Assembly: GCA_965202985.1 (NCBI GenBank)
Contig: CBDBCF010000001.1
Location: 1,376,001 to 1,440,000 of the forward strand
DNA length: 64,000 nucleotides
Source: Longimicrobiales bacterium
Lineage (GTDB): Bacteria > Gemmatimonadota > Gemmatimonadetes > Longimicrobiales > Gaopeijiaceae
Reading direction: 5' to 3'
Position 1 is the first letter of the stretch. Each line of letters opens with the position of its first letter. The position numbers were made by a program. This document shows positions 27,601 through 33,600 of this stretch, piece by piece.

Positions 27601-30600
27601 TCTACCCCTACGGGACGCCGGAGGCGCGACGGTGAGGGCGGCAAGAGGCTGTCGATGAACCAGCCAGGGCGGCTAGGACGATGATGCGCCGTATTGGGAG
27701 CTGGCTGAAGGCGTTTGGGCGCTGGATTCTAGCCGCGTTTTCCCGTATCTTTGGCGCCGCCGCCGGCTTGCTCGGCACCTCCTCCAAGTCTTCTCGCCGA
27801 CAGGAAACGATGAACCCCCAACTGGACACGATGCCCCTTGCAGAACGGTTTCGCTTGGTGGAGCGAGGCCGTGCGCGGGGCAAGAACAACGCGCCCGCCC
27901 CGAATCAGCCGGGGTTGGATCTGGTCGAAACTGAAGTGGTCGAGCATTGCAACCGGTTGATGAGCCAGAAGAAGGACGCGTACCGTAGAACAGCTCGCCT
28001 GACCGAGCAACGATCTGTCCCCGCGGCGGGTACAGCCACGAGTGCGGACGCGGCGGTTGAAGAGGCGTGCGGCCGCATGAGGGCAAGAGTGGAAGAGGAG
28101 CGCCCCGCGTTGAAAAGCCTTCACAGGTCTGCGCAGAAGGCTGTCGACGACATGCGGGACTTCAAGAACGTGCACCGCCTGACTCGGGACGCCCACGTGC
28201 CTCAAAACCTTACTTCCTCGTGGATGCTACTTGCGGTGTTGCTTGTGGTCGAGACGCTGATAAACGGGCTGTTCTTCGGCGCGAACTTGGCAACAGGGCT
28301 GTTCGGCGGCGTCACTTACGCCGCACTGATCAGCGCCATCAACGTAGTCGTGTTCGGCTTGCTCGCCGCGACCGCCATTCGGCAGCTCTATCATCGCGAC
28401 CAGTCCCGAAATATGGTAGGATACTTGCTCCTGTTGCTCGTGGGCACAGGAGCCATTGGATGGAACCTTGCCGTGGCACACTACCGGGAGGCACTACCGC
28501 CCGACTATCCGCCCGCGATGGAAGCGATAGAGGACACAACCGATGTCGAAGTCGGAATCGCCGAGTGCCGACGGGGGCCCACCGAAGCCGACGCCGACGG
28601 AGAAGCAGTTTGTCTGTTGGTGAACCAATGGTTCTCGCTCGACGGCTTTCAATCCTATATGCTCATGTTAATCGGTCTCGTGATGTTTGGTGTTGCGACG
28701 TGGAAGTGGTTGCGCATGAGCGATCTGTATCCTGGCTTCGGTCAACTGGAAAGGCGGCGACAGGAGACGGAAAAGAACCTTCTCGACGAGCGACAGGAAC
28801 TAATGGAGCGGTTGGCGGACGACGTAGAGGACGCAGTGAAGCAGCAACATGCCATCTTTGTTGATCCGGTAGGTAGTTGGAAAAGGGCCATGAAGGCCCA
28901 TGAGGACCTGAAGCAGGCCCACGAGGACCTTCGCGACTTCGCAAGAGAACTAGAAGAAGAATGCCGTAGCGCCATCGAAACATATCGGTCCGCCAATCGA
29001 GAGGCTCCCCGCGGAGATCCAGAGCCCGCTCACTGGTCGAAGCCATGGAAGGCGAGCTGGGAGTTGCCGGAAAGGCCTGCCCCGGATCGGGGCGACATCG
29101 GCGACCGTCGTCAAGCAGAGGCCGAGAGCCGGGCAGCGCAGGAACAACGAGACGAGCGTTTGGCCACCCTGAGGTCGTGCGCTGACGAATGCAAGGCCCA
29201 AATGGAACAGATCACCAGGATCAGCGATGAGTAGGAAGTCCAGGAGGGAAGCCGAGAAGAAGAAGACGCGGCGAGCTTGGGGGGTGATTGTACCCTGCGT
29301 CCTGCTACTATTTGGCTTCATCGTCTTTGGCCAGCTGAACCAGCCCCAAACCGGTGCTGATCATTGTCCCTTGGACGGCCAGTTCCCCTTCCAAGTGGCG
29401 GTGCTCGTGGACCCGTCGGATGCACTCACCGCAGTTCAGCAGCGATCGGCTCTCCCTCGGCTTATCGAAGCCCTGGATCAAGTGTCCGAACGAGCCGAGA
29501 TTCGCGTCTATTCGGTTGCGCGGATCGGACGAGGTGGCAATGCGGGGGCTGACCTGCGACTGTGCGTGCCACGCCACCCCGAGAGTATTGGCTGGCTCGA
29601 AGGCCTGTGGAAAAACCGCCGGATCGCCGCAAGGAACTACGACCAGGACTTTATCGAGCCGCTGCGTTCGCGGTTGGGTGAACTTCTTGCTGCACCGAGC
29701 GACTCCGTGTCGCCGATCCTGGAAGCCATACAGGCCGCTTCCGTCGACGCCTTTCCACCAGGAAGCCCAGCGGTTCCGCGAGAGCTGATCGTCGTGTCCG
29801 ATATGGCTCAGCACTCCAGGGACCTGTCGTTCTTCCGGGAGGCTCCAGATTTTGGCGCATTCGGTGGCAGCGCTATCTACAGGACGCTCCGTGTCGATCT
29901 CATCGGCGTCAAGCCGACGGTTCTTCTGCTTGCTCGCCGTGGAACGTCAGGACATCTGCAAGCTGGACGTCTGCAGCGGTTTTGGGACGACTACTTCATC
30001 GATTCGGGTACCGATGGCCCGCCCCGTTGGGTCCCCGTCGAGGGATGACCCGGCTTCCTGGCGAGACGACATGACATTGTTCCATAGCCAACCTACGCCA
30101 AGCCGCCGACAGGCTCTCCAAGTCGAGCGCCAGCGGAAAGATCATCAAAGGACCTGGATATTCACATTGGGCGTCGGTCTTCTGCTCGTCTTCGCCGGCA
30201 GTTGGCTCGGATTCGATCGATGGTTGGGAGGATGGTTCCTCGCGCTTATCCTGTCCTTGCTCATGGCGATGTACTTCATCACGGCGAGCACCACGGAGTA
30301 CGTCTCGGCAGACACACGGGGCGACGCGTTCTATTATCTGGGCCTGCTCTTCACTTTCGGGTCTCTTGTATCTGCTCTGTACGGTTTTTCTAGGTCCGAC
30401 GTTGGCGACATGAGAGAGATGATTGCTCCTTTTGGCATCGCGTTGCTCACCACGATTGTGGGCCTCTTTGGGCGAGTCTGGTTCTCTGTGTGGCAGGAAG
30501 CTCCTGGTGATGCCGTTGCCGACGCCACTCGGGCACTGGACGAAGAGATCAGAGACATGAAGGAGATCGTCAGGCTGGGCAGTGTCGGCATGGCAGACCT

Positions 30601-33600
30601 CGTAGACAAGGTTGGCGAGTCCGCCCAGGCAATCGAAGCAACCGCGGGGCGCATTGCATCCGCTGCGAAAAGGGCTGTCAGCACGGCCAGCGATCTCGAC
30701 GAATACTCTGGCCACGTGGCTAAGCTTGCCCAGTCCTTCACGCACGGGGCGACCAAATTTGAGTGTGCGGTCGCCGGGGTCTCCGACGTCGTCTCAGCTC
30801 TAAAGAAGCCTCTGGAAGAGACGAAGGGACGCCTGGACGCCCTGTGTGCCGATTTTGCTGTGCTCGGCAAAGCCGTCAAGCAGGCGCAAGGGTCGGTGCT
30901 GCAGTTGGATCGTGCAGGTCGCGACAGCGAACAGGAAATCGCGGGCATTGCGTCGCGTGCCGAAGGCGTAAAGAGCGAGATGGAGAAGATGCAGGTGCAA
31001 CTTGCCAAGACAGCGGAGTTTGTCGTTGGTGCCCAACGCGCCGCTTCGACGATCGACGAACACACCGCCAGGATAACCCGTTCCGTTGGCGACTTGGCGG
31101 GAGAAGTCGGTAGGTTGCAAGAGGCTGCTGTCGTGGCCGCAGATGCCATGTCGGGAGTGGGAAGCGCAGCGTCGGAATTTGGAATGGCGAAGTCTCAGGC
31201 AGCCTCTTTGGGCGAAAGCCTGTCGGGGTTGTCGAACGCAGCGGTCCAAGGACGAGAAGTTGTAGCAGGGCACGTTGAGGGCCTGAGAGAAAATTTGGAC
31301 GCCGTGGGTGCCGAAGCTGCGGCGACGCTTGGCCACGCAAGCGGTCGTGCGGATTCCGTGACCAAGGACCTCGATAGTCTGCGGGATCAGCTGACGGAGA
31401 CCCAGAAGCAGCTATCGCAGATCACTCGCGACAGTGTCGTGGTCGCCAAAGAACTGCGCCGACGCACCCAAGGTTGGAAATGGCGGCGCTTCTTGTTCTG
31501 GCGACGCGATTCGACACGCTAGCGTAGACCGAGGTCGGTAGCAATGTTGCCCGCCGAGAAGACGCACTACCGCAAAGGCCTGACGCTCGGGCTGACGCTG
31601 GCGGAGACGTTTAGCGTGGTGGTCTTTGTCCTGCTCTTAGCGTTTGCACTGGTGCTGCGCACCGAGAACGACTCTCGCGTTGAGGCTGAAGAGCAACTTG
31701 GCGAGGCCGAGACGCAGTTGGCGCGCCGCAACCAGATGCTGAACCCCGGCGACACATTGGGTGGCAGTTGGTACCGTTACGCCCAACAGTTGAATGACTC
31801 GCTGGAGGACACACGAGACCGCGCGGGGGTGGCGGAGGCCGAGCTTGCCCAGGCACGTTCCCTGCTGGAAGCGAGGTTGGGACAGCAAGAAGTCGACTCG
31901 CTTCTGGAGCGGTCCAGGGAGCTGGAGACCGCTCGCGATTCCGTGGAGCGGGTCAAGAATTTGTTGGAAACTCTGGAAACCGAACGGGACTCGCTGATCA
32001 ACACTGCGACCGAAGCGCAGAGGCTCCGGGAGATCGTGGCCGAAGCAGTTGCCGAGGAACACGACTCCCTCACGTCCACACAAGTGGATTCGATAATCGC
32101 GCAAGCGGCTCGCGCCGGCTCGCTGGCCCAGGAACTGAGGGAAGCCCACGAGGCCATCCGCTACCAAGCCGCACAGCTTCGCTCCAGGGACAGACTTCTG
32201 GCTGGCGGTTCGGTGGACTCCTTAGCTCGGGAGAATGATCGGTGGCGGTCCCGCTCGGACTCGTTGGAGCGCGAGCTTCGAGGCCACGGTCCACCTTCGT
32301 GCTGGCTCGACGCCCGTGGCGACCCCGAGCATGTCTTTCGCGTTGAGCTAACCGACGGTGGTATGAGGCTTTATGCTACCATCCCCGAGCACCGATCAAC
32401 GGAAGACGAGGTAGAATTCGTCCGGCAAATCGAAGAAGGACGCGAGTACGTACCCGAGGACTTCATTCGACTCACCAGCCCGTTCCTCAGGGCCGGACTC
32501 CGGGACGAGTGCAAGTTCTGGGTTCGGATCGAACGCCGAACGGAGAACGCGGCCATCTTCGAGGAACGTATACGAGAAGTTCGCAATCCCTTCTTTCCCG
32601 TACTTCGTTAGAGGTGCCCGCTGGTTTTATGTTTAGACGATGCCGCCGCCTTCCATCTATTGCCCGGTCCCCGCACCCCACGAACAGGAACCCATGAAGC
32701 CTGACCGCGAACAAGTCGCCCGCTGGAAGAAGGTCCTTGCGCCCTACCTGGGCCCCGACAACGCTCGGAGCGCCGGGCAGCTCGCCATCAGCGCGGGTCT
32801 CTTCGCCGGCTGCTGGACGGCGACCTACTTCGGCTTGGCGGTCGGCTACTGGCTGACGCTGTTGCTCGCGGTCCCGACCGCGGCCTTCCTCATGCGGCTC
32901 TTCATGATCCAGCACGACTGCGGGCACGGGTCGTACTTTCGGTCCCAGAAGGTGGCGAACGCGGTGGGCTTCGTGATCGGGGTGCTGGCGCTGACGCCGT
33001 ACCACTACTGGCGGAAGACGCACGCGATCCATCACGCGCACTCGGGCGACCTGGACATGCGGGGCTTCGGCGACATCAGCACGAAGACGGTCAAGGAGTA
33101 CGAGGCGATGTCGCCGTGGATGCGGCTGGGGTACCGCATCTACCGCAACCCCTTCGTCATATTCGGACCCGGCGCGGCGTTCCACTTTCTGATCAAGCAC
33201 CGCTTTCCTTGGGACGTGCCGCGGGCGTGGAAGAGGGAGTGGCGCTCGGTGTGGTGGACCAACGCCGCCCTGGCCGGGATCGTCGCGCTGGCGTGGGCGA
33301 CGATCGGGCTGGAACGGTTCCTGCTGGTGCAGATTCCCGTCACGCTGTGCGCATGCGCCATGGGCGTCTGGCTCTTCTACGTGCAGCACCAGTTCGACGA
33401 AGCCTACTGGCACTGGCACGAAGACTGGAACTACTTCGACGCCGGGCTCCACGGGTCGTCGCACCTCCGGCTGCCGAAGCCGCTGCAATGGCTCACCGCC
33501 AACATCGGCCTGCACCATGTGCACCACTTGAGCGCGCGCATTCCCAACTACCGGTTGCAGCGCTGCCACGACGAGAACCCGGAGCTGTGGGCCGCGCCCA

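Follow-up and report, generated by a model that had tools for sequence, protein, structure and literature searches.

A low-GC four-gene cassette

The window analysed here is a 64,000-nt stretch of contig CBDBCF010000001.1 (assembly GCA_965202985.1; contig positions 1,376,001-1,440,000), and all coordinates below are positions within it. Four genes lie on the forward strand, adjacent ones overlapping or standing apart by no more than 22 nt: gene 1 (27681..29234, 517 aa), whose start is ambiguous between 27681 and 27810; gene 2 (29227..30048, 273 aa), whose start overlaps the end of gene 1 by 8 nt; gene 3 (30071..31522, 483 aa); and gene 4 (31544..32611, 355 aa). The genome-wide survey's note had described a low-GC operon, and this is borne out by four open reading frames with a GC content of 0.604 versus 0.686 genome-wide; GC3 is 0.66-0.71 versus 0.92-0.94 in three flanking genes. 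The window copy is flanked by peptidase M81/MlrC and fatty acid desaturase genes, which are housekeeping genes. The 64-kb window contains no tRNA, and scans of it for repeats and for promoter or terminator motifs stayed at chance level.

The four genes are real, intact and under purifying selection, and their dN/dS values of 0.15-0.41 indicate that the cassette is functional. Three congeners carry it at the same site, a site thus common to four genomes of the genus, in versions that share 33-78% identity; the three flanking genes used for comparison share 74-95%. In one congener (G402), dS is 1.3-2.4 for the cassette versus 0.23-0.37 for flanking genes. Such far more diverged versions at a single site fit conflict-type turnover. 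Of 60 loci, only 36 have a cassette with a lower GC content than the flanking DNA.

A fixed pair of membrane proteins

Gene 2 encodes a vWA-fold protein anchored by a single transmembrane (TM) helix. It had been noted previously that this protein belongs to no Pfam family, that its family is broad and that its fold is that of a vWA domain. All three observations were reproduced: the Pfam search gave the same result, 1126 representatives of 50%-identity clusters were recovered again, and the AF2 model (pLDDT 94) found BatB as its best Foldseek match (3IBS, E 5.4e-5) and matched 4FX5 in VIA (Z 12.0, rmsd 2.9, 158 aligned). The canonical MIDAS motif is D-x-S-x-S; gene 2 instead has a variant, D62-x-S/T64-D65, with S162 and D192. 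The metal-site residues D62, S/T64, S/T162 and D192 are kept in 145/145 homologues and D65 in 132/145. By these computations gene 2 is a vWA domain tethered to the membrane, and its metal site is intact; the domain probably faces the periplasm. A pair of cysteines, C47 and C113, is also conserved. The first vWA strand starts at residue 56, some 20 residues past the TM helix, the linker is ~15 residues long, and the TM segment includes a His in 6/145 homologues and an acidic residue (Asp/Glu) in 7/145. No member of the family (0/145) matched PADLOC.

Gene 1 encodes a four-TM inner-membrane protein with coiled coils at both ends, the latter predicted to lie in the cytoplasm. Hydropathy places its TM helices at residues 139-157, 172-190, 205-223 and 279-297. 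Five polar residues within the membrane or close to it (E148, N152, N178, R226 and D305, counted from the ATG at 27810) are invariant among 53 homologues. The protein falls in no known family, with no credible match in Pfam, NCBIfam, PADLOC or PDB and only unnamed clusters in the ESM Atlas (0.96-0.97). A match to ZorA1 (E 0.003) was dismissed as coiled-coil noise, as were SMC, JetC, LmuB and myosin-type matches of genes 1, 3 and 4 in Pfam, NCBIfam and PADLOC; two of the 53 family members matched PADLOC, both to LeoBC and probably for the same reason. A predicted complex of the gene 1 and vWA proteins gave ipSAE values of 0.13 and 0.08, relative to a mark of 0.32, and was counted neither for nor against binding.

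The linkage between these two genes is strict. Gene 1 lies upstream of the vWA gene in 58/58 metagenome loci with at least 600 nt of upstream sequence, and in 39/39 plasmid, genome-collection and phylum loci with a vWA match at E<1e-19; the latter count covers L001-L008 and L039-L070 and, like a few others herein, takes in one unpublished genome, G057. Of 39 long metagenome loci, 37 hold all four genes, each of them having a separate B-subunit gene after the A-subunit gene. Genes 1 and 2 therefore constitute an inseparable fixed core, and the motor-like pair of genes 3 and 4 is an optional part. The earlier proposal of a conserved four-gene operon needs correction in that genes 1 and 2 often stand alone. 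The converse arrangement, a Glu-type A/B pair lacking the core, accounts for 2 of 20 phylum matches.

An optional motor-like pair

By sequence, genes 3 and 4 encode a divergent pair of the MotAB/ExbBD/ZorAB type carrying the ion-path signature of a 5:2 motor, the hallmark of which is present: adjacent A and B genes, a Thr ring and a mid-membrane carboxylate, here Glu. The putative A subunit, gene 3, has two N-terminal TMs, a pore hairpin containing T95 and T128, and a helical cytoplasmic tail of ~340 residues, along which coiled-coil-type matches occur. Hydropathy and alignment place two hydrophobic helices (30-48 and 52-70) before the pore hairpin, implying that gene 3 probably has four TMs. 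T95 and T128 are invariant in 22/22 gene 3 relatives; among A subunits matched by pattern, the first Thr is found in 66/66 and the second in 59/66. Among 60 complete A subunits the tail varies from 86 to 499 residues, with a median of 320. Only ~16 residues separate TM2 from the pore helix, so the A subunit has no torque-generating cytoplasmic domain. The ZorA2 match reported previously for gene 3 was recovered at E 2.4e-5 over residues 79-143. A TM-only profile searched against PDB found ZorA (8VVN) best at E 0.045, with no other motor among its three matches at E<=10. By hhalign, gene 3 aligned to a type II ZorA with a probability of 84 (E 7e-6), T95 and T128 falling on its Thr and Ser, and to two of the three PF01618 (ExbB/TolQ-type) proteins of the genome with probabilities of 26 and 4.5. 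Within these comparisons, gene 3 is nearer to ZorA than to ExbB/TolQ; the pair is stator-like, in agreement with the previous suggestion of a ZorA/MotA-like protein.

Gene 4, the putative B subunit, consists of an N-terminal TM helix with Glu21 (codon 31604..31606, forward strand), a helical stalk of ~200 residues and a C-terminal domain (32261..32608, forward strand). On sequence and alignments, Glu21 occupies the site of the ion-binding Asp of MotB, ExbD and ZorB; hhalign aligned it on the ZorB Asp, albeit with a weak score (probability 5.6, E 0.007), and the register was also matched by eye to two ExbD-like helices of the same genome. A 40-column profile of the B helix had no match in PDB. 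Glu rather than Asp is found in the membrane helix of 62/62 B subunits. The stalk has a median of 196 residues in TolR-type relatives, and B-subunit stalks measure 110-200 residues.

The survey's note had observed that gene 4 has no detectable OmpA domain. No OmpA or ZorB match was found with Pfam, NCBIfam, PADLOC or ZorB profiles, and an OmpA fold was absent from the best 50 rows of both Foldseek and VIA. That observation can now be refined, as the model of the tip (AF2 pLDDT 89) shows a TolR/ExbD-like domain. The top VIA rows were TolR structures (5BY4, Z 6.2, rmsd 3.8, 85 aligned; 2JWK, Z 5.7, rmsd 2.8, 71 aligned), with a resolvase tying with them at Z 5.2 and ExbD 2PFU at Z 3.7; Foldseek returned nothing at E<=0.001, ExbD 8VGC scoring a probability of 0.69 at E 0.31. 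As a lead only, the ESM Atlas placed the tip in unnamed clusters (0.81-0.85). The same type of tip is predicted in 25 of the 37 four-gene metagenome loci. Other relatives carry an OmpA-type tip, matching MotB (6YSL) at 9e-9 and ZorB (8VVN) at 1.7e-7, and the Paracoccus B proteins previously named as ZorB2 relatives are two such proteins, with a match of 1.5e-27. Across relatives the tip is of either the TolR/ExbD-like or the OmpA/MotB type.

Zorya types I-III (PDB 8VVN, 8VVI and 8QYD; PMC11946911, PMC11890865) share with the cassette the A-then-B gene order, a pore hairpin with a Thr/Ser ring, a long helical tail on the A subunit, a single-TM B subunit with an acidic residue, ZorB-matching OmpA-type members and a patchy, mobile distribution. 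However, ZorB has an essential Asp26 where the cassette has Glu, and Asp is said to be universal in the known 5:2 motors of the superfamily (PMC11946911). ZorA has three TMs, where hydropathy and alignment point to a probable four in gene 3, and the OmpA-like wall-binding domain of ZorB is fused to its TM helix without a linker, whereas cassette B subunits have a long stalk and frequently the TolR/ExbD-like tip. The constant partner genes encode two membrane proteins, which are also found alone, and ZorC, ZorD, ZorE, ZorF and ZorG are lacking from the operon. Their absence had been noted previously and agrees with the housekeeping flanks of the window copy and with the lack of recurrent Zor effector genes among 291 neighbours across loci. 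In the genome, which is 92% complete, profile searches found no ZorC, ZorF or ZorG; PF15611, PF11828, PF11445 and ZorB2 had 0 matches genome-wide, in searches for which two of the controls also had no match. The cassette is thus neither Zorya nor built around its motor. The earlier description of a ZorAB-based system is not supported, given a core made of gene 1 and the vWA gene, an optional motor, and a B subunit without the ZorB Asp or an OmpA tip. The accompanying claim of a new, undescribed system is upheld in that the literature searched, supplements aside, contains no description of the operon.

The other motors resemble the cassette in part. TolQR and ExbBD share the Thr-ring pore hairpin and the fold predicted for the gene 4 tip, but the operon has no TolA/TonB, TolB/Pal or receptor partner, and it differs in its long A tail, long B stalk, Glu for Asp and foreign, patchy character; PF01618 genes occur besides at three separate loci of the genome. 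MotAB shares the probable four-TM A subunit and, in some members, the OmpA-type tip, but the cassette has Glu for Asp, no torque-generating domain and no flagellar context in four-gene loci. Also similar are the inner-membrane-tethered vWA proteins beside TolQ/ExbB-family motors that PMC12204202 proposes as general force transducers. As described there, class 1 combines an SHLS/His helix and a disordered linker of ~100 residues with one TPR and two tolR genes, and in class 2 an Asp-bearing transpore helix replaces ExbD, with no separate B gene. The helix of gene 2, without conserved His/SHLS or acidic residue, and its short linker fit neither class so described, and the cassette differs further in its separate B gene and its obligate four-TM coiled-coil partner.

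Spread, neighbours and possible roles

The cassette is patchily distributed. A strong vWA match was found in 21 of 401 phylum genomes and an A subunit in 16 of 70 genomes of the same family. The cassette is also present on 24 plasmid records and one IMG/VR contig; single-query searches with a vWA protein found no relative in 50,697 phage records and one locus in a genome collection. Neighbours across loci include AbiEii, MmeI, SIR2, DruA, HsdR, BREX, PIN/MazF and integrases, and in one case (L061) a two-gene copy adjoins a Zorya-like operon of type II that is complete. Of 80 neighbours of the four-gene metagenome and viral loci, 23 were counted by hand as defence, mobile or nuclease genes, and 34 belong to no family. 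Defence, mobile and toxin-antitoxin genes make up 15/54 neighbours versus 20/129 random genes of the genome (p 0.065, hand counts), or 12/54 versus 17/129 on a stricter count (p 0.18), a weak enrichment because genes of these kinds abound in the lineage. The only recurrent neighbour is a thermonuclease, at eight loci, most copies having an N-terminal hydrophobic segment; said previously to lie beside two plasmid loci, it in fact adjoins four of the seven that were opened.

Together, these observations lead us to favour, tentatively and at a little short of even probability, a mobile envelope-surveillance module directed against phage or serving in wider conflict. The strict linkage of the core pair, the motor signature, the ZorA-like tail, the conflict-like evolution and the defence neighbours support this reading. 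Against it are the weak neighbour enrichment, the position of the window copy between housekeeping genes at a genus-wide site, the near absence of PADLOC matches, the lack of any known effector domain, such as a nuclease, as a constant part of the operon, the inconsistent GC signal, the existence of core-less A/B pairs and the vWA force-transducer precedent in PMC12204202.

That precedent also serves a rival reading which we consider unlikely, though a serious contender: a housekeeping-type envelope machine whose motor, like TolQR/ExbBD, would pull or turn against the wall or outer membrane, with gene 1 as its anchor and the vWA protein as a force transducer or adhesin holder for upkeep, export, attachment or host contact. 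The TolR/ExbD-like tip, the long periplasmic stalk, the shared chromosomal site in four genomes and the faint defence association are all consistent with such a machine, as are the vWA proteins beside tolQ/tolR-like genes in that source. However, the core pair can do without the motor, the cassette is patchy, foreign and rapidly replaced, the vWA helix and its ~15-residue linker lack the expected features, and no outer-membrane receptor, TPR or TonB partner recurs among the 291 neighbours. A barrier to incoming DNA or contact attack (conjugation entry, type VI puncture or predatory bacteria) rather than to phage, with the secreted thermonuclease as an optional effector, seems improbable. It draws on the recurrence of that gene, the many copies on large plasmids and one copy near a vgrG gene, yet the thermonuclease is present at few loci and in both orientations, and a search, whose control matched in 6/14 genomes, found none in the genome of the window. 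Less probable still is that genes 3 and 4 no longer rotate or conduct and serve as a structural strut across the envelope or leak passively, with Glu marking decay of motor function. Weak sequence matches to motors would suit this, as would the slowing of MotB motors by an Asp-to-Glu change, reported in PMC6663468, but the invariable acidic residue of the B subunits and the retained Thr pair argue for a maintained ion path.

If the cassette is indeed a surveillance module, the periplasmic vWA domain may use its metal to bind an intruding protein, such as a tail or ejection protein of a phage, or else a component of the envelope that has been damaged. Gene 1, with its invariant polar membrane residues, could provide the output, either as an oligomeric ion leak or as a signal relay that arrests the cell. 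An A5B2 motor, where present, would be tethered through its long stalk to the wall or the outer membrane, would turn slowly on the proton gradient once that link is disturbed, and might gate or boost the core pair. Gene 1 and the vWA protein would then take the place of ZorC/D, ZorE or ZorF/G, but as membrane-bound partners able to act alone. A more ambitious form of this reading, which we hold as doubtful but worth stating, is a new envelope immune class in which a self-sufficient pair of vWA receptor and channel-like four-TM protein is coupled to the first natural Glu-driven motors of the MotAB/ExbBD/ZorAB type, with OmpA and TolR anchors swapping freely. If true, it would be a motor-based defence that dispenses with nucleases, and would link the Tol/Ton and Zorya motors in evolution.

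If the cassette is defensive, it shows that a ZorA-like motor can pass its signal to partners in the membrane instead of nucleases, a point relevant to what the Zorya motor senses and by what means. The uniform Glu of the 62 B subunits, in a family with more than 1000 50%-identity vWA clusters, offers a natural test of the ion-binding step, and the exchange of OmpA and TolR tips on one motor tests what a B subunit must grip. Copies occur in harmless, culturable carriers, among them Rhizobium leguminosarum WSM1325 (on pR132502), Sinorhizobium fredii NXT3 and Microvirga ossetica, which makes these questions testable.

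Architecture of the four gene products

The four genes are tightly packed open reading frames on one strand of the window, located at 27681-29234 (gene 1), 29227-30048 (gene 2), 30071-31522 (gene 3) and 31544-32611 (gene 4). The GC content of the block is 0.604, versus 0.686 for the genome, and its third-position GC is 0.66-0.71, versus 0.92-0.94 in three flanking genes. Profile searches returned no credible Pfam or NCBIfam family for any of the four, and the closest relative with a name is a Longimicrobiales genome. Comparison with three congeners gave dN/dS values of 0.15-0.41 for all four, indicating that these are real genes under purifying selection.

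Gene 1 is predicted to contain four transmembrane helices, flanked on both sides by coiled coils, and residues E148, N152, N178, R226 and D305 are invariant among 53 homologues. Structure, defence-model and Atlas searches revealed no solved relative, defence model or named Atlas cluster. The polar residues within the membrane helices suggest that the protein may form a channel or gated helix bundle. In one locus (L066:7440-10794, genome G117), a second gene 1 homologue immediately follows the vWA gene. Elsewhere, genes 1 and 3 (L050) and gene 1 (L059) each seemingly consist of two reading frames, through decay or assembly error.

The genome-wide survey's note had assigned gene 2 a vWA fold without a Pfam family and counted 1126 relatives at the 50% level. 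We obtained the same count, and the fold was supported by an AF2 model built from 145 sequences, consisting of a single N-terminal helix and a vWA domain (pLDDT 94; best Foldseek match 5.4e-5; VIA Z 12.0, rmsd 2.9). Residues D62, S/T64, S/T162 and D192 are conserved in 145/145 sequences and D65 in 132/145; we take this set to be a variant MIDAS metal site. A near-invariant cysteine pair, together with basic residues ahead of the helix, suggests a periplasmic location.

Whole-protein matches of gene 3, the A subunit, were mostly coiled-coil noise and were set aside. The survey's description of this protein as ZorA-like was borne out by its membrane part alone, for which the best PDB match was ZorA 8VVN (E 0.045). 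The same segment matched a type II ZorA-like protein with a probability of 84; when two of the genome's own ExbB/TolQ-type proteins were used instead, the values were 26 and 4.5, a modest test because these targets are single sequences. T95 and T128 are invariant (22/22) and align with Thr147 and Ser184, given as ZorA filter positions in PMC11946911. In a wider set of A subunits the first threonine is present in 66/66 and the second in 59/66; the search pattern failed to match another 11 sequences. The tail has a median length of 320 residues.

All 62 matched B subunits (gene 4) carry a glutamate in the transmembrane helix, and one more was not matched. This residue aligns, at low score, with the ZorB aspartate, and comparison by eye with two ExbD-like helices gives the same register. 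The GldLM glutamate sits on the other subunit. In published work, the ZorB aspartate is described as universally conserved and essential (PMC11946911), an Asp-to-Glu change in MotB leaves a slower yet working motor (PMC6663468), and GldLM lacks clear homology to this motor superfamily (PMC9389320). The C-terminal domain, or tip, was modelled confidently (pLDDT 89). In VIA, TolR takes the first two places (Z 6.2 and 5.7), in a tie (difference within 1) with a resolvase (Z 5.2), and Foldseek reached ExbD at E 0.18-0.31 only. These fold scores are middling; combined with the domain's attachment to a B-type helix, they suggest a TolR/ExbD-like tip. Such a tip was found in 25 of 37 four-gene metagenome loci (from the best 80 of 244) and was lacking in the other 12; B subunits without it match the OmpA domains of MotB and ZorB. 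The two tip types are interleaved on an unrooted 79-row vWA tree (8 and 4 changes).

Linkage of the core and motor pairs

In a scan of 401 phylum genomes, the vWA profile matched 47, of which 21 gave strong matches. Among 20 strong loci fetched, 17 contain all four genes, two contain genes 1 and 2 only (one from the unpublished genome G057), and one ends at a contig edge. In 12/12 middle-scoring loci genes 1 and 2 occur without a cognate motor pair. The core of the cassette is genes 1 and 2. No vWA reading frame was called in one of eight weak loci fetched, and seven of the eight have an upstream multi-TM gene unmatched by HMMER; the one tested aligned weakly to gene 1 (hhalign probability 12).

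In the best 80 of 244 metagenome loci, gene 1 lies upstream of the vWA gene wherever sufficient upstream sequence is available (58/58); gene 3 comes after the vWA gene in 60/65, and genes 3 and 4 do so in 37/39 long loci. Because the profile that retrieved these loci was built from 12 sequences of a subfamily, these proportions do not represent the whole family. Matches fell on 24 plasmid records, and 7/7 of the loci examined there carry all four genes. On the vWA tree, which was quickly built, the two-gene state requires five changes, at least two forced by strong branches, and one two-gene pair falls on long branches inside the window's clade (SH-aLRT 99%). Because the tree is unrooted, motor loss and gain are indistinguishable.

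Of 20 phylum matches to the A-subunit profile, 18 lie directly behind a vWA gene. In L189:5582-9748 (G212) the A gene is split by an insert of ~1.2 kb and followed by a short Glu/TolR-type B gene, and L190:5734-7757 (G103) encodes a distant A/B-like pair with a glutamate in the B helix; neither 14-kb region fetched contains genes 1 and 2. The L190 pair indicates that Glu-type motors reach beyond the cassette.

Relation to known systems and possible function

Among the 5:2 motor systems (the MotAB/ExbBD/TolQR/ZorAB superfamily), the cassette is a real and widespread variant that is so far undescribed, main-text literature searches having returned no account of it. Like Zorya, it has a tailed motor anchored to the wall, but it falls outside Zorya on the aspartate, the OmpA domain and the effectors. 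Models for ZorC, ZorF, ZorG and ZorB2 found nothing in this genome, which is 92% complete, in keeping with the survey's statement, for ZorC, ZorF and ZorG, that ZorC-G partners are absent. The cassette fits neither class of motor-coupled vWA proteins in PMC12204202.

We tentatively favour an envelope-surveillance defence module, a reading that extends from the folds, motifs, gene linkage and turnover observed to a topology, assembly, trigger and output that we infer. The vWA protein would be a metal-dependent sensor and gene 1 the membrane output, with the slow Glu motor of genes 3 and 4 as an optional gate or amplifier. That the proteins instead form a Tol/Ton-like envelope machine appears rather unlikely. 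A barrier against DNA entry or contact attack is more doubtful again, and a non-rotary strut would be the least probable of these explanations.

Genomic site and neighbours

The cassette lies between genes for an MlrC peptidase and a desaturase, a site filled in all three congeners by diverged cassette versions. For the congener G402, identity is 93-95% in the flanks and 33-55% in the cassette, and dS is 0.23-0.37 and 1.3-2.4, respectively; immediately ahead of the cassette, this same site also carries an inserted AAA-ATPase and partner gene (L184:9780-11977). Diverged cassettes within conserved flanks, together with this insert, suggest that the cassette has been replaced through recombination at a hotspot.

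In other loci the neighbours vary freely; the sole recurrent one is a thermonuclease gene (8 loci), which a genome-wide search did not find in this genome. Defence and mobile genes are common near cassette loci. With genes called by script and classes assigned by hand, they account for 15/54 neighbours versus 20/129 control genes (p 0.065), a weak difference among non-independent kin. The restriction, toxin-antitoxin and mobile background of this genome is very high, such genes (DarTG, GmrSD, Eco29kI, Mrr, Fic) making up ~20 of 129 random genes (L160-L172).

In L061:7343-13165 (G080), a two-gene copy (gene 1 and the vWA gene) converges on a type II Zorya-like operon that is complete, encoding a ZorA-like protein, a ZorB-like protein with the aspartate and an HNH nuclease. 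A two-gene copy in L070 (G246) follows BREX pglZ and brxL and precedes hipA. Within the window, a low-GC island at 2652-5585 with an SNF2 helicase and two genes without a Pfam family is a possible defence locus, and another at 8512-12675, encoding a radical SAM protein, an HATPase_c_3 protein and a product of no assigned family, is possibly a modification or defence system. Positions 22327-24527 hold a low-GC AAA_21/AAA_15 ATPase gene, a small gene and a Pol-beta nucleotidyltransferase gene; an AAA_14/DUF4143 ATPase is encoded at 56656-57807 and an AAA_21 and DUF4276 pair at 61983-63775.
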